Shown in pieces: positions 4,759 through 19,517 of a DNA stretch of 32,000 nucleotides (positions are counted from its first letter, which is position 1; each line of letters starts with the position of its first letter). The notes beneath the pieces were generated by a model. That model worked only from the letters and a program-made list of their open reading frames with translations. It did not search any database and was not told the DNA's origin. The position numbers and the translations under genes were made by a program. Source of the stretch: Nostoc punctiforme PCC 73102 (GTDB lineage: Bacteria > Cyanobacteriota > Cyanobacteriia > Cyanobacteriales > Nostocaceae); contig NC_010628.1 in assembly GCF_000020025.1 (NCBI RefSeq), forward strand, positions 1,320,001 to 1,352,000. Reading direction: 5' to 3'.

Positions 4759-6880
4759 AGGAATTTATATCATCAGGCATAGGTTGTAAAGCTACGAGAC
4801 CTACTTTACTAAGTAAACACTGACCCTGACGAGTGGTTAGCATCTGGGCAAATGTAGAACCACCAGGCAGGCGACTGGTGTCTTTAGGGTACACTACAAA
4901 AATAGGGTATCCCAAGGGGTAGCTTTGGAATGTTGTGACATCAACATAATAATCATCATGTTGACACAAATCATCTGAGGGATTAATTGAGCGGCGATCG
5001 CGCCGTTGAAACAGAGGTTGAATCGCTGATTTTTTGCCATCTGCGATCGCTAGCGGATAACCAGTACACTGGCTCGAAGTTTTACTGATAATGCCAAAGC
5101 TGATAATACCAGTGGTTCGCCCCTCTAAAGTCTCGCTGCGTATCTGGTTCTGGGTTTTTGTTGTATCTATTTTCGTATTTTTAACAGTGTCTTCAAATAA
5201 AGCTTCGTCTTGAAAGACATTTTTGAGAACTATGTCTTTAAATTTACTGATTGCTTCTGGTTCTGTTGGGGCAAAAGGTTTCACAGCTAAATTTGGAAGT
5301 TTGGGACTAATTTGTTGCCAATTGGTAATTTTACCTGTGTAAATTTGACGCAATTGCTCAAGACTTATTTGCCCTCCAAGAGCATTAGCAAGATTTGAGT
5401 CTCTCTTATTAAATGCTACAAAAACAAGTAATCCATCATAAGCAACTTGTTTTTTAGAAAGTTTATCTGTGATGTTCTCTACCAAACTAGTAATTGCAAA
5501 ATCTTTTTTGTTTGTTTCAACTTCTTCGATACTTTTAATCGGATTCTTGACGTTTGATGACAAAACAGGCTCATAGTTAAATGTTGCTGTTGCATCTGGC
5601 TTTGGTCTGGTCAATAACTCTCCTAAACGACTATTTTCTACTGATTGTGTTAAAATATAACTCCATGTACTGTCCTTTTCTCCTGTGTAAGCAAATTGTC
5701 CGGCAGGAACATTAGGGACTTCGGAGAAATTTCGCACAAGTCTAGACCATAATATATATTGATTAGGACTATCTGTTTTTTTGCCCAAAAGCCAATACAA
5801 AATTCCTCCGCCGAGTAGTAATAAAGCCAGAATTACTATCAGGATTAAAGGCATTGGTAAACGCTTTTCTATTGCTTGAGAACCTGGCGATGACACTGAA
5901 CTTTTACCACGATTTTCTTTGGGAAGTTGCAGCAGTGCTTGACGAGCCGTTTCCGCATTCTCGAAAGGAGTTTCTAGACCAATGAGGCGATAAATAAACT
6001 GCTTTAAATGGCTATCAGTATCCGGCCATTGTTGATTATCTCTAGGGTCGAGAGGCTGGTTGGATAAAAAATTAGTTGTCCGTCCTGTCCATAGATAAAA
6101 GGCTAGCAATCCTAATGATTCTAAATCTTGCTCAGGTCTGGCGGGCGCGGGTTGAGGAATAATAGGTGGAATAAATAAGTTTTCCCAGGTCGCTAAATCA
6201 CAAAAGTATATAGAGAATTTTTGATTATTTTCTAGTTTAATTAAAGTACTATCTAAACTGATATTGCCGTGAGTTATACCCAACTGTACTTGATTTGAGG
6301 GAAAACGCAGCTTTTGGGTGTGGAGAAACTGGAGAGTTTGTAAACCTTGATTTAATACTTCCCGCACATCAGGAGATGTCATCGCGCCCTTTTCTATGAG
6401 ATATTTCCCTAAAGTTTGGGATGATTCGATTCCTTGAGTGATCAGATAGCAGCGTTCTCCTTTTTCATCTGCGATCGCTTCTTTAGTTTCTACAAGACGA
6501 AAGTTTTGAATTCGACTATCGGCTAAACTTACCCCACCCACCCGTTTGAAAGTCTCTTTCCGCTTCAGAGTCTCGCTTTCATTAAAACAACGATTGGGTA
6601 GTAGGTATTCTTTGATGATGACAGGCTGTTTATCTTTAAGTTGAATCCCTGAGTATAGGCGGCCTAAACCCCGTACACCAATAAAACTAGCTATTTGATA
6701 AGTTCCCTGACTTCCTTTAATCTCAGCCTCCTGTGGTAAAGTCGCTGGAAAACCACATTCCAAGCAAAACTTAGCCCCCTTGATTTGCTGCGCGGTTTGG
6801 AAAGGGCGATCGCAACTTAAGGGAGAATTATACGAGCAGGGGTATTCTTGATAAAAAGATTCAAATGAAGGCATATACAA
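4730..6880 (-). CDS. Protein-kinase-like protein (catalytic-loop Asp replaced) with four-Cys prefix, one TM helix and a C-terminal periplasmic substrate-binding (PstS/PBP-like) domain
   Basis: CxxxxxxxxC...CLEC prefix; Gly-loop GVRGLGRLY; VIIKEY lysine motif. The catalytic loop reads THGNISLDS instead of H(R/G)DxKxxN, and CDL replaces DFG. TM helix is MPLILIVILALLLLGGGILYWLL, followed by about 340 aa of extracytoplasmic domain. Confidence 0.8.
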   Translation of the reverse strand: MYMPSFESFYQEYPCSYNSPLSCDRPFQTAQQIKGAKFCLECGFPATLPQEAEIKGSQGTYQIASFIGVRGLGRLYSGIQLKDKQPVIIKEYLLPNRCFNESETLKRKETFKRVGGVSLADSRIQNFRLVETKEAIADEKGERCYLITQGIESSQTLGKYLIEKGAMTSPDVREVLNQGLQTLQFLHTQKLRFPSNQVQLGITHGNISLDSTLIKLENNQKFSIYFCDLATWENLFIPPIIPQPAPARPEQDLESLGLLAFYLWTGRTTNFLSNQPLDPRDNQQWPDTDSHLKQFIYRLIGLETPFENAETARQALLQLPKENRGKSSVSSPGSQAIEKRLPMPLILIVILALLLLGGGILYWLLGKKTDSPNQYILWSRLVRNFSEVPNVPAGQFAYTGEKDSTWSYILTQSVENSRLGELLTRPKPDATATFNYEPVLSSNVKNPIKSIEEVETNKKDFAITSLVENITDKLSKKQVAYDGLLVFVAFNKRDSNLANALGGQISLEQLRQIYTGKITNWQQISPKLPNLAVKPFAPTEPEAISKFKDIVLKNVFQDEALFEDTVKNTKIDTTKTQNQIRSETLEGRTTGIISFGIISKTSSQCTGYPLAIADGKKSAIQPLFQRRDRRSINPSDDLCQHDDYYVDVTTFQSYPLGYPIFVVYPKDTSRLPGGSTFAQMLTTRQGQCLLSKVGLVALQPMPDDINSYACKSVPQS

Positions 6881-6917
6881 AAAGTTTCGTGAATTGCGCC
6901 GATTACTTTCGTCGCGC

Positions 6918-7598
6918 TCAAGCGTGAACTAATCCTAACTTGAGGGCAGCCACAATAGCTTGAGTCCGACTAGTAACCTTCAATTTTTCAAAAATACTGG
7001 TGAGATGCGCCTTAACAGTAGCAACTGTTACATATAAATGTTTAGCGATTTCTTCATTAGAAGCACCTTGAGTTAACCAGTATAAAACTTCTTGCTCTCT
7101 TTCGGTTAAATGCACCTCATGACATGCTTTCAGACAAGAGTCTGAATAAGCCTGAAAAAACCGGAAAAATCGACTAGCAACTTCTGAAGGTAAATAAATT
7201 TCCGCTCTTGTAACAGTGTCAATAGCCTCACACAATTGTGTTGCCACACGATTTTTAAACACATAACCGGCGGCTCCCGCCTGCATTGCTCTAAAAATCC
7301 AGTCGTCTTCTTGATGAGCCGACAACACTAAAACTTTGCCAGTGTAAGCAGTTTCCTTAAGACTTGCCAGAACTGTAATCCCATCACATCCCTTCAATTG
7401 CATATCCAGCAAAATTAAATCTGGACACTTCTGGGCTGTAAACTTTAAAACCTGCTCCACAGAATCTGCATCACCTATAACTTCTACAGGTAATGCAGAA
7501 TTAATACTATAAAAATTTAGGAGAGTACGTAATCCTTGGCGGAAGCGTTCTTCATCATCTACCAGCAAAACCGAAAGTTTCTTACTATCATTAGCCAT
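6918..7598 (-). CDS. Response regulator, NarL/LuxR family (REC + HTH)
   Basis: LLVDDE...DLILLDMQL receiver motifs; C-terminal LTEREQEVLYWLTQGASNEEIA...TVKAHLTSIFEKL LuxR-type HTH. Confidence 0.9.
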   Translation of the reverse strand: MANDSKKLSVLLVDDEERFRQGLRTLLNFYSINSALPVEVIGDADSVEQVLKFTAQKCPDLILLDMQLKGCDGITVLASLKETAYTGKVLVLSAHQEDDWIFRAMQAGAAGYVFKNRVATQLCEAIDTVTRAEIYLPSEVASRFFRFFQAYSDSCLKACHEVHLTEREQEVLYWLTQGASNEEIAKHLYVTVATVKAHLTSIFEKLKVTSRTQAIVAALKLGLVHA

Positions 7599-7652
7599 CT
7601 TTTTAATTACAAATTACGTTACCTACGTAGGAACATCATTACTAATTACGAA

Positions 7653-8795
7653 TTAATTCCCGCTCCTTGGTCGAGGCAAAATTACAGAAAATTGCGCTCC
7701 ATTTTCTGATAGGGCTTGTGCCCAGATACTTCCTTGATGATCCAAAATAATTTTCTTCGCAATAGTTAAGCCTAGTCCTGTACCTCCTTTGCGCCGGGAA
7801 TAAAATGGGGTAAATACTTTTTGTAAATCCTCTTGTGATAATCCTGGCCCTTGATCTGAAATTTTAATTAAAACTTCATCTTGAAAAACTTGCCAGCTAC
7901 AGGTAATAGTTCCTGAGTTAGGACTAAAATGGACGGCATTACTGAGGATATTATCAAATACTTGTTTCATTTGTAATTTGTCTATCTTCAGTATTGTCGA
8001 TGTATCTGGAATCAATATTTTAAGTTGTTTCTGATTAATTAGAGGCTGTAAGTTTTTGATGCTTTCATCAACTAAACTTCTTAAATCTTGAAGTTTTACC
8101 CTCAGCTTTGCACTTTGTCCACAATCAATTAGCTCATTTAAATTAGTATCTAAATCTTGTATACTTTCGCCGATGATTGTTGCTTGCTCTTGCCAAGGAC
8201 TATCCTCTAAACCTAAGCATAAGTTATGTGCATACAATCCTATAAGCCCTAGAGAGTTACGCAATTGATGGCCTATTCGATGCAAGATATCTTCCAGGAG
8301 TTGAATTTCAGTTTTTTGTCTTCCATAGTCCAAGTAAATATCTGCATACTTACTCAGCAGCATAGCAGAGCGTTTTACATATAATTGCAAGCTCTCTGAT
8401 AGAGGTTTATGAGTAATGATTTGAATGTATTCAGGTTTTTGATTCCTATAGGCAAAAGGGCAAACGTAAGAAATGGATGAAAAATCCTTAAGTTTAAATT
8501 CATGCAAAGTAAAAGCAGGCGGAAAATCTGTAAGCCATGCTTCAGAGCACAAATAAGCTAAAGTTTTTTGGGAAAAAGGAGCTTGGTCTTGACCATAATT
8601 TATAACTTCCTGATGATTTTTCAGCAAGTAATCATGATATACAATCCGAGCGAAAAAAATTGGATATTGACTAGTTAACTGTTCAGACTCTAACTGACAA
8701 TAGCTCTGAATATCTGAGGAGTTCAAATAATTCGAGCCATTCTCCAGTTTTTGTACATAAAAGCCTAGTGTCATAGCTTCACTCGCTTTTTGCAA
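7653..8795 (-). CDS. Cytoplasmic sensor histidine kinase (HisKA + HATPase_c) with an uncharacterised N-terminal domain
   Basis: H-box RIGHQLRNSL; N-box ILSNAVHFS; G-boxes DQGPGL and GGTGLGLTIAKKI. No obvious TM segments. An alternative start is Met8 (8774). Confidence 0.85.
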   Translation of the reverse strand: MQKASEAMTLGFYVQKLENGSNYLNSSDIQSYCQLESEQLTSQYPIFFARIVYHDYLLKNHQEVINYGQDQAPFSQKTLAYLCSEAWLTDFPPAFTLHEFKLKDFSSISYVCPFAYRNQKPEYIQIITHKPLSESLQLYVKRSAMLLSKYADIYLDYGRQKTEIQLLEDILHRIGHQLRNSLGLIGLYAHNLCLGLEDSPWQEQATIIGESIQDLDTNLNELIDCGQSAKLRVKLQDLRSLVDESIKNLQPLINQKQLKILIPDTSTILKIDKLQMKQVFDNILSNAVHFSPNSGTITCSWQVFQDEVLIKISDQGPGLSQEDLQKVFTPFYSRRKGGTGLGLTIAKKIILDHQGSIWAQALSENGAQFSVILPRPRSGN

Positions 8796-9098
8796 CCAAA
8801 TGTTTTTATTCTTCTGCTGACCAGTATAAATTTATGCAGTCTTAGTAATGTTTATTTTTTTATTAAGTTATCTTGTTAGATAATTAATACAAAGAATTAT
8901 TAAGTTTATGTTTATATATGCTTATCCTTTTTCTAAGTATATATAGGTACGTAAGGAAAATTATTTGTTACATCGAAATAAATTTTGTGGTGTGGTCATC
9001 TCGCCACTCCTATTAAGAACTGCTCCAGACTAATCTACAAACTGAAGTTACTGCTTTTCGGATTTTTGAAAATTTAATATCTTCCAGCCCACTCAAAT

Positions 9099-9182
9099 GG
9101 GGAGCAGGGGGCAGGGGAGCAGGGGGGAAAGAATTAATAACCAGTACCCAATGACAAATGACAAATGACCAATGACCAATTG
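9099..9182. repeat. STRR-type heptamer repeats (GGGGAGC/AGGGGGC run, then 4x AATGAC[AC])
   Basis: Tandem heptamers read directly at 9099-9127 and 9150-9180, upstream of the CIS module. Confidence 0.8.
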
Positions 9183-9271
9183 AAAAAATATCGACAAAAG
9201 TCTAATTAACTTTAGAAGGCTGATACATATACTGTAGATGCATCTGGATTAGCTACCAGCAGAACACCTTC

Positions 9272-10111
9272 ATGCTTATCTTCGTTCTTCAAACTTTAGC
9301 CGAAATTCTAGCTGGAGGAACCTCACTTACCAGTACAGAGCAAATTGACTTTAGCCATCCTGGTAATCGAAGGGAAGAGGGAGCAGGCCCGACTCTCAAT
9401 TTATACATTTTTGATATACGTGAGAGTAAGCAGGTACAACATTCTGGTAGGCAAGTTGAACGCAAGCTAACACGCGCTCTACAACCTGCCACTGTAAATT
9501 GGGCACCCGCTTGGTTTGATGTTTCACTGCTATTAACAGCCTGGGATAGAACAGCTTTAGGGGAGCATCACTTTATCAGTGAGGCGTTGGCTGTGCTGTT
9601 GCGCCATCGCACCTTGGAAGAGGAGTTTTTGGTTCCTGAATTACGGGGCTATGGTAATTTGAACATGACAGTTGCCCTAGAGCCGCCAATTGAAATTGGC
9701 TCTTTATGGAGCGCTCTCAATGTGCCATTGCGTTCAGCCTTATATTTGACAGTTACAATCCCCTTCGAGCCACAACCTACTCCAGTACCTTTGGTTTGGG
9801 AGCGGATTTTCAATTTGCGAAATCAATTGTCTCGTGATAGCGACAGTCTAGTATTAACCAGGCGAGTTGCGATCGCGGGTATTGTCAAAAGTGCGGTGAC
9901 AAATCTGCCACTGGTAGCGGCAGAAGTAGCTGTGAGGGGAACTGACAAGTCCATATCAACTACTAAAGAAGGACTGTTCTTTTTTGAAGACCTTCATTTA
10001 GGTAATTATGTTTTGACGCTGAATCATCCTGGCTATTTACCCCAAAACGTCAATGCATTGGTAGATAACCAAAGTAATACTTTCAAAGAAATATTTCTAA
10101 CTCCTGAATAA
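9272..10111 (+). CDS. DUF4255 (Pvc16/Afp16 N-terminal-like, tail cap/terminator) protein with a C-terminal carboxypeptidase-regulatory-like beta-sandwich
   Basis: IDFSHPG....GPTLNLYIFDIRES matches the DUF4255 signature. The C-terminus (GIVKSA..N.PL..AEVAV.GTDKS..T.KEGLFFFEDLHLGNYVLTLNHPGY) looks like a CarboxypepD_reg-type domain. Confidence 0.8.
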   Translation: MLIFVLQTLAEILAGGTSLTSTEQIDFSHPGNRREEGAGPTLNLYIFDIRESKQVQHSGRQVERKLTRALQPATVNWAPAWFDVSLLLTAWDRTALGEHHFISEALAVLLRHRTLEEEFLVPELRGYGNLNMTVALEPPIEIGSLWSALNVPLRSALYLTVTIPFEPQPTPVPLVWERIFNLRNQLSRDSDSLVLTRRVAIAGIVKSAVTNLPLVAAEVAVRGTDKSISTTKEGLFFFEDLHLGNYVLTLNHPGYLPQNVNALVDNQSNTFKEIFLTPE

Positions 10112-10141
10112 TTAGATTTTTACTGACTTGGAGAAACTTTC

Positions 10142-11803
10142 ATGGCTAGACTTGATTACTTTGCTCCTGGTGTCTACATCGAAGAAATTGACCGGGGTAG
10201 CCGACCAATTGAAGGTGTTAGCACAGCAGTTGCTGGATTTGTAGGCTTTACAGAAGATGTTCGTGGTGGGGCTGAGTTATACAAGCCCATGCTTGTGACC
10301 ACTTGGACGCAATATTTAAACTACTTTGCCCGTCCCAACTCTGACGGCTTCACCGACTTCAACGCCTATTTACCTTTTTCAGTCTACGGCTACTTTATGA
10401 ATGGTGGCGGTCGTTGCTGGGTAACAAGCATTGGGACTCAGTTACCAGGCGCACCCAGACCCGCAACTCCAGAACCGGCGACTCTCAGAATCAACTCTAG
10501 AGGTAATCGTCCAGCCCTCCGCTTTACTTTGCGTCCTGAGCAAGCATCAGGCGGATTAGTAAATCTTGTAATTATTGATGGTTCACCCCGCGCCTTACCG
10601 GAAGGTACTGAAGGAGAAGCGCCTCCAAATACAGGTGAATATTTCACCATTCAAATTCGTCGGGGAGATGAACTTTTAGAGCAATACGAAAACTTGACAA
10701 TGAACCGCGAGCCTGCTGCTCAGATAGCGACTTATGCGTTAGCAGCATTGAGAAATTCGATGTATGTCAGTGTAGAAGACATAACTCAAAGTGGACAGCC
10801 TTTAGCTCGTCGTCCCGTGAATGGTCAATATGAACTAGCGCCACCCATTGTTGCCGCCCCACCCGATAGATTTTCACAGAATTTAGAAGGGGTTCGAGAC
10901 GATCGCACCGGAGTACGCGGTATCTTTGAAGTTGATGAAATCACAATGCTGGCTTGTCCTGATGTGATGCGGGCTTATCAAGAGCAGATACTGAATTTAG
11001 ATCAAGTCCACGGCATCATCGAACTGATGATTAGTATGTGCGAGGGTTCTGCCAGTGGCGATATTCCCAACCCCCCCAACCGCATGGTTGTACTTGATGC
11101 GCCACCGGATGCCGTCAAACCCCAGCAAGTAGTGGAGTGGCTGAATAGATTTAACCGTCGTTCGATGTTTGCGGCCCTTTATTATCCTTGGATTAAAGTA
11201 CCTAATCCACGCGATCGCGGTAATCCAATTTTAGTACCTCCTTGTGGTCATGTGATGGGTGTTTGGGCCCGCACTGACGAAACCAGAGGAGTTTACAAAG
11301 CCCCTGCAAATGAAGTTCCCAGAGGCGTAATTGGTTTGGGCTATGAAACAAACTTCCGCGAACAAGAACTATTAAACCCCTTGGGGATAAATTGTATTCG
11401 CAGCTTCCCCAACCGAGGTATCCGCATTTGGGGCGCACGCACACTAGTTGAGCCAGATAAAACAGAGTGGCGTTACATTAGTGTGCGTCGGTTAATTAGC
11501 TATATCGAAAAATCCCTAGAATTAGGGACTCAATGGGTAGTTTTTGAACCGAACGACCAAGATTTATGGGCACGTGTCACCCGCACCGTTAGTAATTTCT
11601 TAGAGCGTATCTGGCGTGAAGGTGCTTTATTTGGGGCATCTCCAGCACAAGCATTCTACGTGAAGTGTGACGAAGAATTGAACCCACCAGAAACCAGAAT
11701 TTTAGGACGTTTATATATTGAAGTCGGTGTTTGCCCAGTCAGACCAGCTGAATTTGTTGTATTCCGCATCAGCCAATGGAATGGCATTGAAGATAGCGAA
11801 TAG
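10142..11803 (+). CDS. Contractile tail sheath protein (CIS sheath)
   Basis: N-terminus MARLDYFAPGVYIEEIDRGSRPIEGVSTAVAGFVGFTE and C-terminal block YKAPANE...GINCIR.F.NRGIRIWGARTL are classic phage-sheath motifs. A GGAGA sequence lies 8 nt upstream. Confidence 0.95.
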   Translation: MARLDYFAPGVYIEEIDRGSRPIEGVSTAVAGFVGFTEDVRGGAELYKPMLVTTWTQYLNYFARPNSDGFTDFNAYLPFSVYGYFMNGGGRCWVTSIGTQLPGAPRPATPEPATLRINSRGNRPALRFTLRPEQASGGLVNLVIIDGSPRALPEGTEGEAPPNTGEYFTIQIRRGDELLEQYENLTMNREPAAQIATYALAALRNSMYVSVEDITQSGQPLARRPVNGQYELAPPIVAAPPDRFSQNLEGVRDDRTGVRGIFEVDEITMLACPDVMRAYQEQILNLDQVHGIIELMISMCEGSASGDIPNPPNRMVVLDAPPDAVKPQQVVEWLNRFNRRSMFAALYYPWIKVPNPRDRGNPILVPPCGHVMGVWARTDETRGVYKAPANEVPRGVIGLGYETNFREQELLNPLGINCIRSFPNRGIRIWGARTLVEPDKTEWRYISVRRLISYIEKSLELGTQWVVFEPNDQDLWARVTRTVSNFLERIWREGALFGASPAQAFYVKCDEELNPPETRILGRLYIEVGVCPVRPAEFVVFRISQWNGIEDSE

Positions 11804-11806
11804 GAT

Positions 11807-11909
11807 ATTGGGAATTGGAAATTGGGAATTGAGGAAACAATTCTTGTAACTCCTAACTCCCATTCCCCATTCCCCGTTCGCCATTTCCCATTCCCCATTC
11901 CCAATTCTC
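11807..11909. repeat. Inverted STRR-type heptamer arrays (GGGAATT-like arm facing CCCCATT-like arm)
   Basis: Left arm ATTGGGAATTGGAAATTGGGAATTGAGG (11807-11834); right arm CTCCCATTCCCCATTCCCC...CCCATTCCCAATTCTC (11857-11909). Located in the sheath-tube spacer. Confidence 0.8.
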
Positions 11910-11940
11910 AAATTAATCACACACAAAGGAGTCCAAAAGT

Positions 11941-12396
11941 ATGGCAGGCGAATTTTTAACCTCTTGTAAATTTTACTTTGAGGCTGACGGCATTACTGAT
12001 AAATTCATCAAAGAAATTAGTGGCTTAGGCGTTGAGAATACTCCAGCGCAAGAAGTCCACGGTTCATCTAAAGGCGCTAAACTAATGCGTCAAGCTACAC
12101 CAACTGTTGTTAAATTTACCAACATCACAGTAAAAGTCATCGCCACTGATGATATAGACCTTTATAAATGGTATCAAGATTGTAACGAAGACATGGGAGA
12201 CCCTCGGAAGTGGTCACAGAAGCGTAAAACTGGTTCAGTGGTTGCTTATGACCAACAAGGCTCTGAAAAAGCACGCTGGAACATTGTCAATTGTTATCCT
12301 TGTAAATACACTGGCCCTACCTTAACTGCCTCTGGTGGTGATATGGCAAATGAAACAGTTGAATTGGTTCACGAAGGAATTAAACGAATCAAATAA
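11941..12396 (+). CDS. Tail tube protein, T4 gp19-like (CIS tube, paralog 1)
   Basis: FYFEADG....FKEISGLG.E......HG...G......PT.VKF.NITVK......DLYKWY, then W.I.NCYPCKY.GP.L.A......E.VELVHEG. AAGGAG SD at 11926-11931. Confidence 0.9.
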   Translation: MAGEFLTSCKFYFEADGITDKFIKEISGLGVENTPAQEVHGSSKGAKLMRQATPTVVKFTNITVKVIATDDIDLYKWYQDCNEDMGDPRKWSQKRKTGSVVAYDQQGSEKARWNIVNCYPCKYTGPTLTASGGDMANETVELVHEGIKRIK

Positions 12397-12405
12397 TCGT
12401 AATTA

Positions 12406-12560
12406 CGTAAAGCCTGCGGCATAGCTTTGCTTAGAGCGTAGCGGTAGCAAGTCCGCAAGCTTCATTACGAATTACGTTAGCGCAGCGTAAAGCCTGCGGC
12501 ATGGCTTCGCTTAGAGCGACGCAGGAGCGTCATTACGAATTACGAATTACGAATTATTTA
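12406..12560. repeat. Duplicated small dispersed repeat (CGTAAAGCCTGCGGCATRGCTTYGCTTAGAGCG) plus AATTACG heptamer run
   Basis: Copies at 12406-12444 and 12486-12525. ATTACGA heptamers at about 12465-12476 and 12531-12556. Confidence 0.75.
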
Positions 12561-13058
12561 ACAGTGGTACAATCCGCAAGCCGAATTCCAGAAGTTCTTA
12601 CGGCCCATCGGTTCTATTTAGAACTGACACTAGAAGGTCAAAACGATGCCAATTGCTTTTTTTTGGAGTGTCAAGGCTTCAAAAGAACACAAGAGGTAAT
12701 TGAAATTTCTGAAGTTACTTCTCAAACCTGGGGTAAAAAAGGGCAATCAAAAGGCCAGGTGGTGAGAACTAAGCTTCCTAGCAATCCTAAGAGTGGTAAT
12801 CTCACTCTGCGTAGAGGTACTACCAACTCTATGGATTTTTGGAAGTGGTTTGAAAAAGTTGAAAAAGGTAATTGGTCTGAGCAACGTAGACTTGTTGCTT
12901 TGTCTATTTATAATCAGGCAAATCAAGAAATAGCTAGATTTGAATTAGCCGGTGCTTGGCCTGCAAGTTACAAAATTGCCGATGTTAACGCCCGCAGCCA
13001 TGACATCGAAATTGAGGAAGTGGAGGTTGCTTTTGAGGAATTTAAACGTGTGAAGTAA
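12501..13058 (+). CDS. Tail tube protein, gp19-like (CIS tube, paralog 2); true start probably GTG 12564
   Basis: RFYLELTLEG....FLECQGF....EVIEI......, then LAGAWPASYKI.D......IEIEEVEVAFEEF. The first 21 codons of the listed ORF lie inside the dispersed repeat, so the in-frame GTG at 12564 is more plausible. Confidence 0.85.
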   Translation: MASLRATQERHYELRITNYLTVVQSASRIPEVLTAHRFYLELTLEGQNDANCFFLECQGFKRTQEVIEISEVTSQTWGKKGQSKGQVVRTKLPSNPKSGNLTLRRGTTNSMDFWKWFEKVEKGNWSEQRRLVALSIYNQANQEIARFELAGAWPASYKIADVNARSHDIEIEEVEVAFEEFKRVK

Positions 13059-13069
13059 TTAGGAGAAGT

Positions 13070-13417
13070 ATGTTTCCCACAGAGTTTGAATTTACACTGC
13101 CAAAGGGGTATCTAGACTCTGAAGGCAACCTCCACCGCAAAGGTGTAATGCGGTTATCAACGGCAATAGACGAGATTGCACCCTTGCGTGACCCACGCGT
13201 TAAAGCTAATCCTGTTTATGCCACAATTATTATCTTGTCACGAGTGATTACTCACTTGGGTGCTTTATCAGAAGTTACTCCTGCAATAGTAGAAAACTTT
13301 TTTGCCCAAGATTTAAATTATCTCCAAGATTTTTATCGGCGAATTAATGGCTTGGAAGGTGAAACTTCCATACCAGAAGATACAATAAACTCCCCCGAAG
13401 CACTTATTCATAATTGA
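13070..13417 (+). CDS. Small conserved CIS-associated protein, tail-assembly-chaperone-like (paralog A)
   Basis: 115 aa. AGGAG SD lies upstream. Clear paralog of 13694-14077 (EFxFTLPxG..DSE...HR.GVMRL.TA.DEI......RV..NP.Y......L.RVIT.LG.L..V.P.......L..D..YL..FY.RIN). Confidence 0.75.
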   Translation: MFPTEFEFTLPKGYLDSEGNLHRKGVMRLSTAIDEIAPLRDPRVKANPVYATIIILSRVITHLGALSEVTPAIVENFFAQDLNYLQDFYRRINGLEGETSIPEDTINSPEALIHN

Positions 13418-13418
13418 A

Positions 13419-13690
13419 TTGGACATGGGGCATTGGGTATGGGCGTGGGGAGCAGAAAGCAAAGACTCATTAACGGAGTTCAAAGCTTCATTAACGGAGT
13501 TTAAAGACTCATTAACGGAGTTCAAAGACTCATTAACGGAGTTCAAAGCCTCATTAATGGAGTTCAAAGCCTCATTAATGGAGTTCAAAGCCTCATTAAT
13601 GGAGTTCAAAGCCTCATTAATGGAGTTCAAAGACTCATCCCCTATTCTCAATGCCCCATGCCCCATGCCCAATCCCCAATTCCCAAATGA
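13419..13690. repeat. Composite repeat: 8 full copies plus one partial copy of a 21-nt tandem unit (AAAGMCTCATTAAYGGAGTTC), flanked by inverted G-rich/C-rich heptamer arms
   Basis: Units at 13461-13628, period 21; the first four are the AACGG type and the last four the AATGG type. Left arm ATGGGGCATTGGGTATGGGCGTGGGG; right arm ATGCCCCATGCCCCATGCCCAATCCCCAATTCCC. Confidence 0.85.
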
Positions 13691-13693
13691 CTT

Positions 13694-14077
13694 ATGCCCC
13701 GTAAAAAGGATACTCTCTCCACAGAATTTGCCTTCACTCTTCCTAGAGGATTGAGTGATAGTGAACACCGAATACATCGTCATGGGGTGATGCGTTTAGC
13801 CACCGCTAAAGATGAAATTTTGGTGCAACAAGAGCGCAGAGTTCAGGAAAATCCAGCTTATGGTGTTTTGGTGATGCTTGCACGGGTTATTACTCGCTTG
13901 GGCAGTCTTAATTCTGTTAGCCCTGATTTACTCGAAGAACTTCTTTTACATGACATTGCCTATCTTCGAGAATTTTATAATCGAATCAATCAGCAAGGCG
14001 ATGTACATATTCCTACACAATGTCCCCATTGTAATACCCAATTTTCAGTGGAGCTAGAACTAGCGGGGGAGTCGTAA
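13694..14077 (+). CDS. Small conserved CIS-associated protein, tail-assembly-chaperone-like (paralog B) with C-terminal CPHC motif
   Basis: 127 aa, paralog of 13070-13417. Stop TAA at 14075-14077, immediately after a G5 run. Confidence 0.75.
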   Translation: MPRKKDTLSTEFAFTLPRGLSDSEHRIHRHGVMRLATAKDEILVQQERRVQENPAYGVLVMLARVITRLGSLNSVSPDLLEELLLHDIAYLREFYNRINQQGDVHIPTQCPHCNTQFSVELELAGES

Positions 14078-14223
14078 GCTACCCCTCCGATACTTTATAT
14101 GAGGAGGTAGCTTTTATTGCTTATCATTTCCACTGGTCACAAGATGATATTTTAAATTTAGAACATACTACCCGTCAGCGCTGGGTGGCAGAAATCAATA
14201 AAATTAACCAAAAATTAATATGA
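14035..14223 (+). CDS. Start-less conserved-looking reading frame (DUF6760-like), probably expressed as a -1 frameshift extension of 13694-14077
   Basis: 62 sense codons (YPIFSGARTSGGVVSYPSDTLYEEVAFIAYHFHWSQDDILNLEHTTRQRWVAEINKINQKLI). There is no ATG, GTG or TTG until 12 codons from the end. It is in the -1 frame relative to paralog B and overlaps it at 14035-14074. Its TGA overlaps the next gene's ATG (ATGA at 14220-14223). Confidence 0.5.
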   Translation, partial: YPIFSGARTSGGVVSYPSDTLYEEVAFIAYHFHWSQDDILNLEHTTRQRWVAEINKINQKLI

Positions 14224-16214
14224 AAGTAAAAGTTAGCTATTCACCAAATCTAAGTGAAGTCAATGAAGTTGACCTGACCACAGAAACTCCAACGAGAGGA
14301 GAATGGTTAATAGGTCGTTCTCCTGATTCTGATTTAGTCTTAGACAGTCCTGATATTAGTCGGGTACATGCTAAGTTTTTTGTTAAAGCTGGAAATTACT
14401 ACTTCTCTGACCTTGGCAGTAGAAATGGCTCAATATTTAATGGAAAACAAGCCGAAAAAGATCGACCATATTCTTTGAGTGATGGAGATATTATCAGGAT
14501 TGCAGATTACGTTCTGATCTTAGAAGCAGTTGCTCCCGCTTATGAGCAACCAGAGACAGTCTTTAGAATTATAGACCCTTCACTGTTTTCTCGGCCGCGA
14601 TCGCCTGAAAATGTCAGCGCAGCCAATGTCGTTAATCCATCCCCAGAAGTAGTTAGCGAAGTTCCAGCGCCTATTACTCCCGAAGTAGAAACACCTTCTC
14701 CAGAAGTCAGCGAAACCTCCGAAGTTGTTGCTAATCAACCCGATGATGTCATTCCGGTTGTTGAGGTAATCGCCCCTGAAAACATTATTCAGTCACCAGA
14801 AGCAGTTAGCGAAGTTCCACACGATGTCCATGATGAAATTGTGGATTTGCAATCAGTTGCGCCAGAAGTCAGTGCAGATGTTGAAGAAGTAGAGATTCCA
14901 GAAGTTAGCGAAAATGATGAGGAAGTTTCTTTTACTGTAGCCGAAGCTGCGATCGCAGCACCTGAAAATATCATCGAAACTTCTGAAGAGGAAATTACAC
15001 TTCCAGAAGTCACTCATGATGAGGTTACAGACTTCGAAACAGCACTGGCGACAGAATCTACTTTCGTGCAACGGCGTGATACAAGTAGTATTCCCCAAGC
15101 TACTGACCATGAAGATGCAGAGTTTGAGGCAGCACTAGAAGCAGAAGTTACCTTCGTACAGCCACGTGATATTTTCCACCAAGTTCCTGCAACCTCTCCT
15201 GAAGATGCAGAGTTAGAGGCGGCGCTGGAAGCAGAAGTCACCTTCGTGCAGCCGCGTGATATTTTCGGCGAAGTATCTAATGAAGAAAGTACTGTTCTGG
15301 AAGTTACTCATAATGAAAATGAAGTAGTAGATTTAGATACACCAGTCGCAGAAGAAGTCGGTTTAGAGTTTGGCGAATTTGTCAACGAAGTTACTGAAGA
15401 AGAGGAAATTCAGCCGCAAGAAACATTGAGCCAAGATACACAAGATATCAATGATGAACTAGCAGATTTAGATATTTTATTTACGGCAGAAGAAAGCGTA
15501 GATATTGACGAAGTAGAACCTAGTTTTGCTGTTGATGAAACAGGAGGTGAAGTTTCTGAAGCATTGACTGAGCCTGATAATATCGTTGTAGAAGTTTCTA
15601 GCAATCAATACATTGATTTGAATAATACAAATACAGAAGAAGCCAGCGTAAATGTTGATGATGTTGTTCTAGTAAGTGAAGTTGCTGAATTAGCTGATAT
15701 TCAATCTTTAGAAACAACAAAAAGCGAAGTTCCTGAGAGTATCAGTCAAACTATTGAAGAGGTTACTGAAGTAGAAGCGACTCAATTTGATGAAACTCCA
15801 GAAGAAATAAATGTAAGTGAGCCTCCCCAAGTGATTATTGAAAGAAACATAGTACTTATCGCTCACGAGAGCAAGAAATCAGAACTTGCTGAATTTGTTT
15901 CTCAACATCAGGAATTTTTCTCACAGAGCTTTACAATTACCTGGCCATCTGTTGGCGAAGTCTTACATCAACAAGCAGGAATAACAATTAGTCAGCAAAC
16001 CCCCGCACCAATTTCTGGAGGATATCAAACAATTGCTTCATTGGTTGGAGCAGGAGAAATTTTAGCAGTTATTTTCCTGAGAGATTTGCTGCAACCTCAG
16101 CCTGGTCAGGCAAATGAAGAAGCTCTGCTCAGATTATGCACTATTAATCAAGTTTTACTGGCAACTAATTTGCCAACAGCAGAAGCGATCGTGCATTATC
16201 TTAAACATATATAG
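14220..16214 (+). CDS. FHA domain / long acidic repeat region / methylglyoxal-synthase-like (MGS-like) domain protein
   Basis: N-terminal FHA (WLIGRSPDSDLVLDSPDISRVHAKF......YYFSDLGSRNGS..NG). About 400 aa are E/V/P/S-rich with PEV(S/V)E motifs and three 30-aa repeats. The C-terminus aligns by eye to MgsA (IVLIAHESKK...SGGYQTIASLVGAGEILAVIF..D......A.EEALLRLC.IN.V.LATN..TA). Confidence 0.85.
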   Translation: MKVKVSYSPNLSEVNEVDLTTETPTRGEWLIGRSPDSDLVLDSPDISRVHAKFFVKAGNYYFSDLGSRNGSIFNGKQAEKDRPYSLSDGDIIRIADYVLILEAVAPAYEQPETVFRIIDPSLFSRPRSPENVSAANVVNPSPEVVSEVPAPITPEVETPSPEVSETSEVVANQPDDVIPVVEVIAPENIIQSPEAVSEVPHDVHDEIVDLQSVAPEVSADVEEVEIPEVSENDEEVSFTVAEAAIAAPENIIETSEEEITLPEVTHDEVTDFETALATESTFVQRRDTSSIPQATDHEDAEFEAALEAEVTFVQPRDIFHQVPATSPEDAELEAALEAEVTFVQPRDIFGEVSNEESTVLEVTHNENEVVDLDTPVAEEVGLEFGEFVNEVTEEEEIQPQETLSQDTQDINDELADLDILFTAEESVDIDEVEPSFAVDETGGEVSEALTEPDNIVVEVSSNQYIDLNNTNTEEASVNVDDVVLVSEVAELADIQSLETTKSEVPESISQTIEEVTEVEATQFDETPEEINVSEPPQVIIERNIVLIAHESKKSELAEFVSQHQEFFSQSFTITWPSVGEVLHQQAGITISQQTPAPISGGYQTIASLVGAGEILAVIFLRDLLQPQPGQANEEALLRLCTINQVLLATNLPTAEAIVHYLKHI

Positions 16215-16502
16215 GAATTCACTTTGATTTCTGTTTGCGGAGCATAGCGTAGCCAATTTATTTGCAGTCAGGCAATAGGCAATAGGTAATGGGAAAGCAG
16301 GCAATACTTTTTGGTTAAGGGGAAAAGGGGAAAGGAGGGAAGGGTTTAAATTTATCTTTACTCCAAGCGCAGTAAGCTTTCCCCAGTCCAAAATAGAGTT
16401 ATTCGAAAAGTATTGGGAAAGCAGGCTTTTTGAGTTGTACTGAGGTTTTTCACGAAATCAAATATAAGCTCTATATACCCTTAGTTAATAATTCGTAAGC
16501 AA

Positions 16503-16539
16503 CAAGATACCCGATTTCTTAAATAAGTTGGGTATCTTG
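16503..16539. other. Perfect 10-bp inverted repeat (CAAGATACCC...GGGTATCTTG) with a 17-nt loop
   Basis: Read directly. Lies about 100 nt upstream of the CHASE2 kinase start, in an AT-rich spacer. Confidence 0.5.
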
Positions 16540-16636
16540 GTATTTCGAGAAAAGTTTCTAATTGCATAGAATAATTTCAATGATGAAAATTAGGATAAAA
16601 AATATGTATATTTTAAAATAAAACTTACCTAGAGAA

Positions 16637-18817
16637 ATGGTTACAAACTTAAAAAGTTTATTTAGACAGCCAGTTATTCTTTCAAGTGCGATCGCTACAA
16701 TTTTACTACTAGGCATTCAAAAACTTGGGGTTTTCGAACCTCTAGAAATGAAGGTCTACGACCAAATGATGCAATTACGTGGCGACCCAGGCCCAGACTC
16801 TCGTCTATTAATTGTTGCTTTAACTGAAAAAGATATTCAAAAATGGAATTGGCCCCTATCTGGCGAACTTCTAGAGCGACTATTGGGCAAACTTGAAGCT
16901 TATGAACCGCGAGCCATTGGTCTAGATATTTTCCGTGACTTACCTGTACAACCTGGTCATGAAAAACTACTGCAACGCTTACAACAGAGCGATATCATCA
17001 TTCCTATCTGTAAACATTCTGGTTCTAACAATCCGGGAATAGCAGCCCCAAAGGGGATTGAAGCAGAGCGAGTAGGATTTAATGATGTAGTAGAAGATAC
17101 TGACGCGACAATTCGTCGCAACCTATTATTGGTAAGTGCAGAAGAGTCCGATTCCTGTCAAAGTACTTATTCTTTTAGCTTGCAATTAGCACTTAAATAC
17201 TTAGAAGTTGGAGGTATCCAGCTAAAATTTACCCCCAAAAAAGAACTACAACTACGAGATACTGTATTTAAACCCCTACAAAGCAACGCTGGCGGTTATC
17301 AGAAAGCGGATACAAATGGATACCAAATTTTGCTTAACTACCATTCTGGTCATCAGATTGCCCAGAAAGTAACTATTACAGAAATACTTGAAAATCAAGT
17401 TAAACCAGATTTGGTGAAAGACCGCATCGTTTTAATTGGTTCAACAGCCAATAGTTTAAATGATATTTTTAACACGCCATTTGCTACTGGTAAGTCAGAT
17501 AATTCCGGGAAAATGGCAGGAATTGAAATTCATGCCCATAGCGTTAGTCAAATTCTCAGTGCTGTTCTTAACAAACAGCCATTATTTTGGTTTCTACCTG
17601 AATGGGGGAAAGTCCTGTGGATATGGGGATGGACTGTAGTTGGTGGGTTGCTGGTATCGCGGATTCAACATCCACTAGGCTTAGGACTGGCAGGAGCAAC
17701 AGCCCTTGCAGTCTTATTTGGAAGCAATTTTGTCATTTTTACCCAAGCTGGATGGTTCCCTGTAATACCTCCGACTTTGGGGTTAGTATTTACCGCCGGG
17801 AGTGTTCTTGCTTATAGTGCTTATAAAACGAAACAAGAGCAACAAGAAATTACCCAACGGGTTCAAGAACACCAACAATTAATTGTGGAATTGCAAGGTC
17901 TTTTACGGCAGCGCGGCGATGCCTCAAATGAAGCACCAACTGTAATTGCTGATTCCATCGGGCAAGAAATTTCATTAGGAACTCTACTAAACAATCGCTA
18001 CAAAATTACTCAAGGCTTGGGTTCTGGAGGATTTAGCAATACTTATTTAGCTGATGATATCCAGCGTCCTGGTAATCCGCAGTGTGTGGTTAAACAGTTG
18101 CGTCCCCCCCGCCAAGATGCAGAATATTTAAATGTCGTCAGACGATTATTTGACGCTGAAGCACAAATTTTAGAAACCTTGGGTAAGCATCCACAAATCC
18201 CTCAACTGCTAGCTTTTTTTGAAGAAAATCGGCAATTTTCTCTAGTGCAAGAATTTGTTCGAGGGCACGCTATGGACAAAGAAGTAACCTCAGGAAAGCG
18301 ACTAAAACAAGCTGAAGTTGTGGAAATGCTTAAAGAAGTTTTACACGTACTTGTTTTTGTTCACAGCTATGGTGTAATCCATCGAGATATCAAACCTAGT
18401 AACTTGATTAGACGAGAATCAGATCAACACATTGTTTTAATTGACTTTGGCGCTGTTAAGCAAATTCATCCTCAGCAGCAAGAAGCTCAGACTATTTCAA
18501 TTGGTACGCCTGGTTATGCACCTTCTGAGCAAATGAGCGGTTTGCCAAAACTCAACAGCGATATTTATGCGTTGGGAATTATGGGAATTCAAGGTTTAAC
18601 TGGGGTAGATCCTAGAGAATTTCGCAGAGATATAAATACTGGTGAAATAATTATTCAAGGTGAAGCTGATGGCAATCAACAGACTTGGCAACATTGGCGC
18701 GAACTAACTGACGCTACAAACGAGTTAGTTATTATTTTAAATAGAATGGCGCATTTCGATTTTACTCAACGATATCAGTCAGCAGCAGAGGTTCTCAAAG
18801 CTCTCGAAAGTCCTTAG
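16637..18817 (+). CDS. CHASE2 sensor domain / TM / Ser-Thr protein kinase
   Basis: CHASE2-like N-terminus (LLIVALTEKDI..W.WPL.........L....PRAIGLDIFRD), TM helices around aa 320-395. Intact kinase motifs: GSGGFSNTY, VVKQL, HRDIKPSNL, DFGAVK, GTPGYAPSEQ. Confidence 0.9.
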   Translation: MVTNLKSLFRQPVILSSAIATILLLGIQKLGVFEPLEMKVYDQMMQLRGDPGPDSRLLIVALTEKDIQKWNWPLSGELLERLLGKLEAYEPRAIGLDIFRDLPVQPGHEKLLQRLQQSDIIIPICKHSGSNNPGIAAPKGIEAERVGFNDVVEDTDATIRRNLLLVSAEESDSCQSTYSFSLQLALKYLEVGGIQLKFTPKKELQLRDTVFKPLQSNAGGYQKADTNGYQILLNYHSGHQIAQKVTITEILENQVKPDLVKDRIVLIGSTANSLNDIFNTPFATGKSDNSGKMAGIEIHAHSVSQILSAVLNKQPLFWFLPEWGKVLWIWGWTVVGGLLVSRIQHPLGLGLAGATALAVLFGSNFVIFTQAGWFPVIPPTLGLVFTAGSVLAYSAYKTKQEQQEITQRVQEHQQLIVELQGLLRQRGDASNEAPTVIADSIGQEISLGTLLNNRYKITQGLGSGGFSNTYLADDIQRPGNPQCVVKQLRPPRQDAEYLNVVRRLFDAEAQILETLGKHPQIPQLLAFFEENRQFSLVQEFVRGHAMDKEVTSGKRLKQAEVVEMLKEVLHVLVFVHSYGVIHRDIKPSNLIRRESDQHIVLIDFGAVKQIHPQQQEAQTISIGTPGYAPSEQMSGLPKLNSDIYALGIMGIQGLTGVDPREFRRDINTGEIIIQGEADGNQQTWQHWRELTDATNELVIILNRMAHFDFTQRYQSAAEVLKALESP

Positions 18818-19147
18818 TAATATGTTATGTAGCGTTTCCTAAGCAACTGAGGTAGACCTAAATTTTTTTTACCAAGCTTAGTAACTTTGAAAACATACCC
18901 CACTAGGGGAGTAACGCGAGAAAGTGAGATCATCGTGAAAAGAGCAAGGGAGCAGGGGGAGTAAAGGGAAAATTTTAGTATTTTTTACAAGGGTTATAGC
19001 CCTAAATACACTTGTTTCTTTTCCTCCCCCTGCCTACAAGTCACTGACAGCGCTGCATAAACCTTGAGATTATCTCAGTTAAATACATATCTGTTCAAGT
19101 TTATCCTGAACTTTACTCTCGATATATTAACCAACACAGCATCAGCG

Positions 19148-19360
19148 ATGAAACTCTTTCCTTCGCTTAATTTTGTACATATTGTTAGTTCTAGTGTCTT
19201 ACGTAGAATCGCTCGGACTCAAATAGGCACTCATAACAAGATTTGCACATCAATCAACTCTCATACTTTACGCAGCCATTCCACAAGTATCAATTACCTT
19301 AAACCCTTTGATACTGCTGTTATTGCTTATCACATGATGGGTCTTAGTAACTTTGAATGA
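19148..19360 (+). CDS. Small hypothetical protein (about 70 aa), paralog of 19518-19736
   Basis: The ATGAAACT start matches that of the downstream paralog. Shared pattern: QI.THN......NS..L..HST....Y..PF..A..A.H..G. The longer listed ORF from 19064 is unlikely. Confidence 0.45.
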   Translation: MKLFPSLNFVHIVSSSVLRRIARTQIGTHNKICTSINSHTLRSHSTSINYLKPFDTAVIAYHMMGLSNFE

Positions 19361-19517
19361 TCTTTTACAGTTCTTGCACTCCATTAGCTCATCCTAATGG
19401 GTGAGGAATAAATCAACCGATCGGGTAATCTGAATGCAGGAAGTTAAGACAGATAAAAAATAAGACTCTATTACCTAAGAAAACTAATTACACTTCACTT
19501 TAACTAAATAGAACCTT

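Follow-up and report, generated by a model that had tools for sequence, protein, structure and literature searches.

We identified, in a 32,000-nucleotide stretch of Nostoc punctiforme PCC 73102 (contig NC_010628.1, positions 1,320,001 to 1,352,000; hereafter the window), a gene directly behind a contractile injection system (CIS) module whose product joins a forkhead-associated (FHA) domain, a long acidic disordered linker and a catalytically degenerate methylglyoxal synthase (MGS) fold, here called pseudo-MGS. By its sequence relatives the protein belongs to a conserved, previously undescribed cyanobacterial family. We are highly confident that it is non-catalytic and associated with the CIS; more tentatively, and with a little less than an even chance of being right, we propose that it serves as a phospho-dependent adaptor or regulator that couples Ser/Thr-kinase signalling to a CIS of the cytoplasmic type. 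The gene and its parts are as follows.

14220-16214, + strand: whole gene for the FHA / acidic disordered region / pseudo-MGS protein, 664 aa, ACC79843.1 / WP_012407864.1, Nostoc punctiforme PCC 73102
14220-14549, + strand: FHA domain, aa 1-110; Pfam core aa 29-94; phosphothreonine-binding residues G32-R33, S47-R48-x-H50 and N69-G70, family-wide invariant
14550-15827, + strand: acidic intrinsically disordered linker, aa 111-536, net charge about -107
15828-16211, + strand: catalytically degenerate methylglyoxal-synthase-fold domain, aa 537-664

The open reading frame (ORF) begins with ATG and was found at exactly the coordinates given by an earlier reading of the bare DNA (the original prediction); its product is 100% identical to ACC79843.1/WP_012407864.1, encoded on an 8.23-Mb contig. 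The three-part architecture described in that prediction was borne out by Pfam, phmmer, AlphaFold2 (AF2) and Foldseek. Pfam PF00498 matched aa 29-94 with E=3e-19 (69.6 bits against a gathering score of 20.7), and the AF2 model, built from an alignment of 40 diverse family members, gave a predicted local distance difference test (pLDDT) value above 90 for aa 1-110, with OdhI/GarA as the nearest solved relatives of this fold (Foldseek, E about 1e-9). Residues G32, R33, S47, R48, H50 and N69 are invariant among the same 40 members and, judged by these intact binding residues, the FHA domain is predicted to be a competent phosphothreonine (pThr) reader. The linker contains 115 D/E against 8 K/R (aa 111-540) and was modelled without secondary structure over about aa 111-533, at a pLDDT of about 40. 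The protein had no match in PHROGs, the Pfam and PHROG scans found in it no CIS tape-measure or tube family, and Pfam detected neither a toxin-like domain nor an eCIS_core domain.

The Pfam MGS model PF02142 gave no match to the C-terminal 134 aa even at E<=10, and the homology of this domain was therefore argued from PDB sequences, NCBIfam models and a fold search. Using phmmer, eleven methylglyoxal synthases of the PDB were matched over the whole domain (E=2.7e-21 to 1.5e-11), and the NCBIfam model MGSA (TIGR00160) scored 93 bits against a cutoff of 146.9 (E=1.5e-26). With NF003559, whose cutoff is 84 bits, the whole protein reached 82.7 bits and the isolated C-terminal domain 87.5 bits. The AF2 model of aa 537-664 had a pLDDT of 93-97 and was superposed by Foldseek on MgsA of B. 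subtilis, Thermus and Borrelia with TM scores of 0.93-0.96 and root-mean-square deviations of 1.0-1.3 Å.

We then aligned the window domain and 86 family representatives (n=87) with E. coli MgsA, using E. coli residue numbers and the following roles: Asp71 as catalytic base, His98, Asp101 and the phosphate-binding Thr/Ser-Gly positions. The roles are reportedly those set out by Saadat and Harrison in 1999. The state of each position in the window protein and in the family is listed below.

His19: kept in the window protein; family 83/87
Asp20: Glu in the window protein; Asp or Glu in the family
Asp91: kept in the window protein; family 86/87
Asp71 (presumed catalytic base): Tyr in the window protein; family Tyr 80, Phe 5, His 2, Asp 0/87
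His98: Gly in the window protein; family Gly/Thr/Ser/Asn, His 0/87
Asp101: Asn in the window protein; family Asn 81/87, Asp 0/87
Thr45-Gly-Thr47-Thr48 (phosphate-binding): W-P-S-V in the window protein; family T/W-P-S-I/V
Ser65-Gly66 (phosphate-binding): P-A in the window protein; family P-A/S

The loss of catalytic residues that had been suspected from the DNA was confirmed by alignment with MgsA, Asp71 and His98 being absent in 87/87. All four motif changes named in the original prediction held on proper alignment, namely AHDH to AHES (His19 kept, Asp20 replaced by Glu), GTTG to PSVG (TGTTG to WPSVG), GGDQQ to GGYQT (Asp71 to Tyr) and PHDPD to PGQAN (His98 to Gly, Asp101 to Asn). At the exchanged positions, Tyr71, Gln72, Gln99 and Asn101 are in turn nearly invariant across the 87 representatives, which argues for a retained non-catalytic function such as ligand binding, partner binding or oligomerisation. 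Among Nostoc species the domain is 92-99% identical at a whole-protein identity of about 75%. Taken at the level of sequence, the catalytic base and the phosphate-binding loop are gone and a conserved polar pocket is kept; the domain is predicted to be a pseudoenzyme under purifying selection and no decaying enzyme, and the loss of MGS catalysis, as far as the alignment can tell, is real and ancient. JGI or NCBI give the name 'methylglyoxal synthase' to many relatives, or to fragments of them, although the catalytic residues are absent; the labels on fragments and JGI records can be traced to the isolated domain just passing NF003559.

The acidic linker carries a recurrent threonine motif, [ED]-x-T-Φ-[IV]-Q-x-x-[DE], in 0-6 copies per protein. 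Searching the linkers for T-Φ-[VILA]-Q found the pattern 157 times, in 64/81 linkers; shuffles that preserve the composition of the linkers gave 10.3±3.4 (maximum 20). Conservation extended beyond the search pattern, with E/D at position -2 in 86%, D/E at +6 in 69%, and Pro, Leu or Ser at +4. The window protein has three copies, spaced 30 residues apart (T281, T311, T341):

15054-15080, + strand: linker motif copy 1, E-S-T281-F-V-Q-R-R-D
15144-15170, + strand: linker motif copy 2, E-V-T311-F-V-Q-P-R-D
15234-15260, + strand: linker motif copy 3, E-V-T341-F-V-Q-P-R-D

No other protein of the window has the motif with acidic residues ([ED]) at both -2 and +6. Bare T-Φ-x-Q occurs twice elsewhere in the window, without acidic context, in tube protein 2 and in a 716-aa protein with a periplasmic-binding-protein (PBP) domain.

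To define the family, we used a HMMER search of 1.84 billion cluster representatives (clustering at 50% identity), which gave 103 matches at E<=1e-30. N-terminal FHA, strongly acidic linker and C-terminal pseudo-MGS are shared by 80 of these 103, and the linker, always strongly acidic, ranges from 88 to 744 aa across the family. When the C-terminal domain was used as query in a word-indexed search, most of the matches were fragments of genes. Relatives were present in 236 genomes in a scan of one genome per species; the genome loci analysed here are the best 80 of these 236, all from Nostoc, and the picture beyond Nostoc comes from a metagenome scan and six look-ups. Named sources are nearly all cyanobacterial: Nostoc, Desmonostoc, Rivularia, Scytonema, Brasilonema, Rhizonema, Nodularia, Chroococcidiopsis, Allocoleopsis, Pseudanabaenaceae and cyanobacterium TDX16. 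The sole exception is a 2.9-kb contig binned as Acetobacteraceae (L017). The claim that no CIS component of this architecture had been described agrees with the literature, in which we found no publication on the FHA/pseudo-MGS architecture and nothing on its accession numbers, on DUF6760 (see below) or on FHA/kinase control of CIS other than the type VI secretion system (T6SS); the paper on the thylakoid-anchored CIS of Anabaena (tCIS) and its supplement cover neither this locus nor N. punctiforme.

The gene lies at the end of a CIS module with the following features.

9272-10111, + strand: cap / tail terminator, Pvc16_N plus CarboxypepD_reg
10142-11803, + strand: contractile sheath, closest solved relative the Streptomyces CIS-Sc sheath 8BKY
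11941-12396, + strand: tube protein 1, gp19 family
12501-13058, + strand: tube protein 2, gp19 family
13070-13417, + strand: orfA, tail-assembly-chaperone-like, paralogue of orfB, PHROG 508
13694-14077, + strand: orfB, tail-assembly-chaperone-like, PHROG 508, probable 0-frame partner of DUF6760
14035-14223, + strand: DUF6760 reading frame, -1 relative to 13694-14077, its TGA overlapping the ATG of the FHA/pseudo-MGS gene; Pfam E=9e-17
14065-14069, + strand: G5 run (GCGGGGGAG), candidate -1 frameshift site in a 43-nt window open in both frames

The sheath matched 8BKY, from the cytoplasmic CIS of Streptomyces, over its full length (E=2e-120) and All3325, from the Anabaena tCIS, only in its C-terminal part (6e-53), and orfA and orfB matched PHROG 508, 'tail assembly chaperone', with E=4e-5 and 2.5e-7. 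By these matches the cap-sheath-tube-tube-chaperone module is most similar to the cytoplasmic CIS of Streptomyces. The gene had been thought to occupy the slot of tube-initiator and spike genes; in fact it follows the chaperone pair, and no spike, PAAR, tube-initiator, AAA+ or baseplate gene was found in the 32-kb window, within 14-16 kb on either side of the module. Contig L143 holds a second module after its FHA and kinase genes (a 73-aa ORF, a gp19 tube, a 1099-aa protein and CIS_tube) and, given this and the missing baseplate and spike genes, the CIS seems to be split into at least two loci. Within the module, a 21-nt tandem repeat (13460-13638, 8.5 copies, 94% match) fills the spacer between the chaperone paralogues and yields spurious ORFs at 13419-13754 (+) and 13313-13783 (-). 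The sheath-tube intergenic region contains the heptamer CCCATTC seven times (11859-11907, with 11798-11831 holding a 14-nt repeat), and the CCCATTC and 14-nt repeats resemble the short tandemly repeated sequences of Nostocales.

The DUF6760 frame immediately upstream of the gene is open from 14035, contains no ATG, GTG or TTG before 14185, and is missing from the GenBank annotation, as deduced from the consecutive accessions ACC79838 to ACC79843; the nearest listed ORF upstream ends at 14077. Across loci, DUF6760 lies in the -1 frame in 124/125, lacks a canonical start before the 0-frame stop in 44/125, and has the G5 run inside a short two-frame overlap just before that stop in 118/125. On the simplest reading, DUF6760 appears to be a -1 frameshift extension of the tail-assembly-chaperone gene, programmed in the manner of phage G/GT. 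The DUF6760 TGA and the target ATG share the ATGA at 14220-14223, and this 4-nt overlap recurs in 106/125 loci. The start/stop overlap of the original prediction is accordingly real and conserved, but the upstream frame is the start-less DUF6760 and no annotated or listed ORF. Through the ATGA, translation of the gene is probably coupled to the last frame of the sheath-tube-chaperone operon. A promoter and terminator scan of 8700-19500 stayed within shuffle expectation and was uninformative on independent transcription.

Linkage to the CIS is widely conserved. A sheath gene lies upstream in 64/65 Nostoc genome loci with enough flank and in 19/28 of the wider look-up and metagenome set, and a Ser/Thr kinase gene follows within 5 kb downstream in 53/59 Nostoc and 13/32 wider loci. 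The same module is kept in Rivularia and a LEGE strain. In Pseudanabaenaceae LEGE 13415 and L143 the order is rearranged to FHA/pseudo-MGS gene, second FHA gene, Ser/Thr kinase and later a gp19 tube, the kinase and the tube being separated by an eCIS_core protein and several further genes in LEGE 13415 and by only a 73-aa ORF in L143. Several loci lack CIS genes. In Nostoc desertorum CM1-VF14 (L022/L094) and GCA_032153685.1 (L087), sheath and tubes are gone, leaving the cap, one chaperone, DUF6760 and the FHA/pseudo-MGS gene; in L083, L091 and L102 the only CIS trace is a DUF6760 remnant directly upstream; in L127 the CIS is deleted, with the divergent PBP and FHA genes still beside the gene; and TDX16 (L082) and L137 show no CIS trace. 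Independent transcription of the gene and its occurrence irrespective of CIS genes had been named in advance as an outcome that would speak against a CIS component; this applies in part, since intact members without adjacent sheath or tube genes do occur, and the linkage is otherwise strong (64/65). As read from gene order, the association with the CIS is strong and ancient without being obligatory. The target gene, cap and kinase of L087 are each split in two ORFs, reflecting decay or assembly errors. Two proteins, one with WD40 repeats (about 740-766 aa) and one of 750 aa without Pfam matches, are paired beside a family member at two sites (L081 11748-16327, Rivularia; L143 2784-7264) and may be further accessory CIS genes.

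The remaining neighbours of interest are dominated by signalling genes.

16637-18817, + strand: CHASE2-sensor Ser/Thr protein kinase, ACC79844, HRD and DFG intact, candidate writer of pThr marks
4114-4758, - strand: second FHA protein, made up of zinc ribbon, P/Q-rich linker and FHA domain, at the end of the divergent histidine kinase-response regulator-PBP-FHA operon
4730-6880, - strand: 716-aa membrane protein with C-terminal PstS-like PBP domain, N-terminal half weakly kinase-like
6918-7598, - strand: LuxR-type response regulator, divergent from the CIS operon
7653-8795, - strand: histidine kinase, divergent from the CIS operon
2487-3899, + strand: eCIS_core (DUF4157) protein, 470 aa, about 5 kb upstream of the CIS module

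From its intact HRD and DFG motifs the CHASE2 kinase is predicted to be active. The divergent operon (4114-8795) is kept beside the CIS module in Nostoc, Rivularia and the LEGE strain. Its 716-aa protein has a zinc ribbon and the PstS-like domain, and its N-terminal half, which lacks HRD and DFG, matched Pkinase at E=0.008 and PDB kinases at E of about 0.01-0.6; the idea of a pseudokinase is weakly supported and is not relied on here. The eCIS_core domain is the usual marker of CIS effectors (Anabaena tCIS paper), and a homologue also lies near a family member in Pseudanabaenaceae (L086). A XisH/XisI pair (1542-2308, - strand; E=1e-52 and 2e-44), typical of heterocystous cyanobacteria, sits just upstream of the window's eCIS_core gene. 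Further away, 84-nt (2.7 copies, 97% match) and 48-nt tandem repeats at 28330-28552 and 28116-28221 sit inside a 444-aa ORF without a Pfam match (28036-29370, - strand).

Comparison with known systems places the protein close to several families and inside none of three. With Fha1/TagH, which acts with the kinase PpkA and the phosphatase PppA in the threonine-phosphorylation pathway of the T6SS (Pseudomonas aeruginosa H1-T6SS), it shares the layout of an FHA domain at the N-terminus, a long linker of low complexity and a further domain at the C-terminus, as well as a gene position inside a contractile-injection cluster beside a membrane Ser/Thr kinase (64/65 and 53/59 of the Nostoc loci for sheath and kinase). 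The TagH model TIGR03354, however, aligned only with the FHA part (aa 26-236, E=7.6e-14, 52.3 bits against a cutoff of 120.25), the C-terminus is pseudo-MGS instead of the TagH C-domain, the machine is of the Afp/Streptomyces type (Pvc16 cap, gp19 tubes) and not a T6SS, and no PP2C phosphatase was found in the window; we regard the protein as a probable analogue and not a homologue of Fha1. The actinobacterial GarA/OdhI proteins, which provide the closest solved FHA folds, combine an FHA domain with a disordered acidic ETTS motif that is phosphorylated by PknB/PknG and then binds the protein's own FHA domain. The same self-binding logic may apply to the E-x-T-Φ-V-Q motifs. GarA and OdhI differ in being regulators of tricarboxylic acid cycle enzymes of about 140-160 aa with one N-terminal motif, whereas the window protein has 664 aa and motifs that are repeated, lie C-terminal to the FHA domain and have Gln at pT+3; it scored 35.9 bits with NF041660 against a cutoff of 200. 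The pseudo-MGS domain has the fold of MgsA (E. coli 1B93, B. subtilis 6F2C, Thermus 1WO8, Borrelia 8U2V; TM scores of 0.93-0.96, 30-38% identity) and keeps His19, Asp91, Gly69-Gly70, Arg107 and Asn119, but MgsA is a stand-alone hexameric enzyme and this domain is fused to an FHA domain and a disordered region, with Asp71, His98, Asp101 and the phosphate loop replaced family-wide. By the cutoffs for TagH and GarA/OdhI and by the residues for MgsA, the protein is placed outside all three families.

The machine itself compares best with Streptomyces CIS-Sc (dbeCIS clade IId; Casu et al., 2023, PMC10066040), which holds the closest solved relative of the Nostoc sheath (E=2e-120). Like the Nostoc module, CIS-Sc combines two tube paralogues with the lack of both tape measure and tail fibre (PMC10066040), and both hosts are multicellular. 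In Nostoc the baseplate genes are not adjacent to the module, and the CIS-Sc paper, in which neither term occurs, mentions neither an FHA nor a kinase gene in the cluster (PMC10066040). The chaperone region resembles the G/GT genes of phage lambda and E/E' of P2 in its match to PHROG 508, the -1 frame of DUF6760 and the conserved G5 slip site; it differs in that the downstream gene encodes the FHA/pseudo-MGS protein and not a tape measure, and the frameshift is a prediction.

How might such an adaptor work? One or more kinases would phosphorylate the linker threonine motifs, a CIS protein or both, and the FHA domain would bind those pThr sites either in cis, as in GarA/OdhI self-binding, or in trans, as for Fha1. 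The pseudo-MGS domain might provide oligomerisation, sense a small ligand or do both; oligomerisation is proposed because MGS enzymes are homohexamers, which would match the six-fold symmetry of the CIS. The outcome could be a stress-dependent switch for CIS assembly or firing. Of the ligand-binding or scaffolding role suggested in the original prediction, the non-enzymatic part stands on residues lost in 87/87; generic scaffolding fits less well, since the signalling neighbours (Ser/Thr kinase, second FHA protein, histidine kinase and response regulator) together with the linker motif point to phospho-signalling instead. Several observations weigh against the adaptor proposal. No linker motif copy is present in 17/81 family members, a kinase gene is absent beside the gene in many non-Nostoc loci and 6/59 Nostoc loci, and no PP2C phosphatase was found by Pfam scans of the 32-kb window. 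Intact members without adjacent sheath or tube genes (TDX16, L083, L091, L102, L127, L137) indicate that CIS-independent roles are possible, and no baseplate gene was found in the 32-kb window, so that this CIS module may not make a complete machine. Finally, the full-length AF2 model placed no linker motif on the FHA or pseudo-MGS domain, a result that speaks neither for nor against self-binding because phosphorylation is not modelled.

It is tempting to speculate further that Streptomyces-type cytoplasmic CIS in multicellular cyanobacteria have in this protein their missing trigger or assembly switch, although we regard this elaborate version as distinctly improbable. A hexameric pseudoenzyme hub would carry six FHA heads on acidic tethers, and DUF6760 of the frameshifted chaperone would deliver it to the nascent tube or sheath. 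The membrane-bound, stress-sensing CHASE2 kinase would phosphorylate the E-x-T-Φ-V-Q repeats at multiple sites, and the resulting decision to assemble or fire the CIS would lead to programmed cell lysis. The degenerate MGS pocket might additionally read a metabolic signal.

Other explanations account for part of the evidence. Phages encode the tape measure of their tails directly behind the G/GT chaperone pair, and the frameshift-encoded 'T' domain binds it. By analogy, the protein could be a structural or lumen component of the CIS, bound by DUF6760 and threaded into the tube, where it would serve as plug, cargo or substitute ruler: its gene directly follows the chaperone pair (phrog_508), the second chaperone carries the conserved -1 frame DUF6760 extension, the 4-nt overlap hints that both are made together in stoichiometric amounts, the middle region is long, extended and of variable length, and related Streptomyces CIS clusters lack a typical tape measure (PMC10066040). 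We consider this rather unlikely, given that the linker is predicted to be fully disordered and acidic and not helical, and CIS tube lumens are negatively charged (Anabaena tCIS paper). The linker varies from 88 to 744 aa even among relatives with about 80% identical sheaths, a poor fit to a ruler, and in Pseudanabaenaceae and L143 the gene is grouped with FHA and kinase genes and not with chaperones. It is also intact where sheath and tubes are deleted (L022/L094, L091, L102, L127), and members without sheath or tube genes make an obligate structural part improbable. A tape measure in the strict sense ranks low: the position fits, but Pfam and PHROG gave no tape-measure match and the middle region is modelled as coil at a pLDDT of about 40.

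Somewhat less improbable, but still unlikely, is a general cyanobacterial Ser/Thr-signalling protein whose place beside the CIS is inherited synteny without functional coupling. Cyanobacteria have many FHA and kinase genes; members with no CIS gene within 10 kb exist (TDX16 L082, L137, L083), and the 80 genome loci are all from Nostoc, so that their synteny partly reflects shared ancestry. Yet 106/125 loci preserve the overlap with the DUF6760 stop down to the nucleotide, the linkage recurs in Rivularia and, rearranged, in Pseudanabaenaceae, and the DUF6760 remnants directly upstream in the seemingly CIS-less L083, L091 and L102 suggest secondary CIS loss and not independent origin. Very improbable, in our view, is a role as CIS effector, whether secreted or loaded, or as chaperone of an effector. 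The locus does hold the DUF4157/eCIS_core protein, and some extracellular CIS (eCIS) use disordered N-proximal regions as loading signals, but the target has neither a toxin-like nor an eCIS_core domain. FHA domains are intracellular phospho-readers, acting inside the cell, and a single conserved orthologue with a C-terminal domain 92-99% identical in Nostoc is unlike a fast-evolving effector. An active methylglyoxal synthase under FHA regulation, the enzyme that JGI and some NCBI records name, has the least claim of all and hardly any probability. Homology to MgsA over the full length of the domain, the 87.5 bits of the isolated domain against the NF003559 cutoff of 84 and the labels of several database records would favour it; Asp71 replaced by Tyr, Phe or His in 87/87, His98 never His, Asp101 replaced by Asn in 81/87 and the exchanged T45-G-T47-T48 and S65-G66 phosphate-binding residues oppose it, as do TIGR00160 (93 against 146.9) and PF02142 (no match), and on the residue evidence we rejected it.

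FHA-based control of contractile machines is already known, and the pseudoenzyme module is what is new here: the family shows clearly how the fold of a metabolic enzyme can be taken over as a pseudoenzyme module, and it is a source of annotation error. If the -1 frameshift between chaperone and DUF6760 is true, the phage G/GT paradigm would also hold for CIS, and DUF6760 would gain a role. As N. punctiforme is a model organism, the candidate is genetically tractable, and point mutations could be directed at R33 and S47 of the FHA domain, at T281, T311 and T341 of the linker and at Tyr602 and Asn632 of the pseudo-active site. The structural papers on the CIS of Streptomyces (PMC10066040) and the tCIS of Anabaena name no kinase- or FHA-type regulators. 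The FHA/pseudo-MGS family provides a concrete candidate for the switching-on of CIS other than the T6SS, especially of the cytoplasmic, cell-death-mediating type of Streptomyces and Anabaena.

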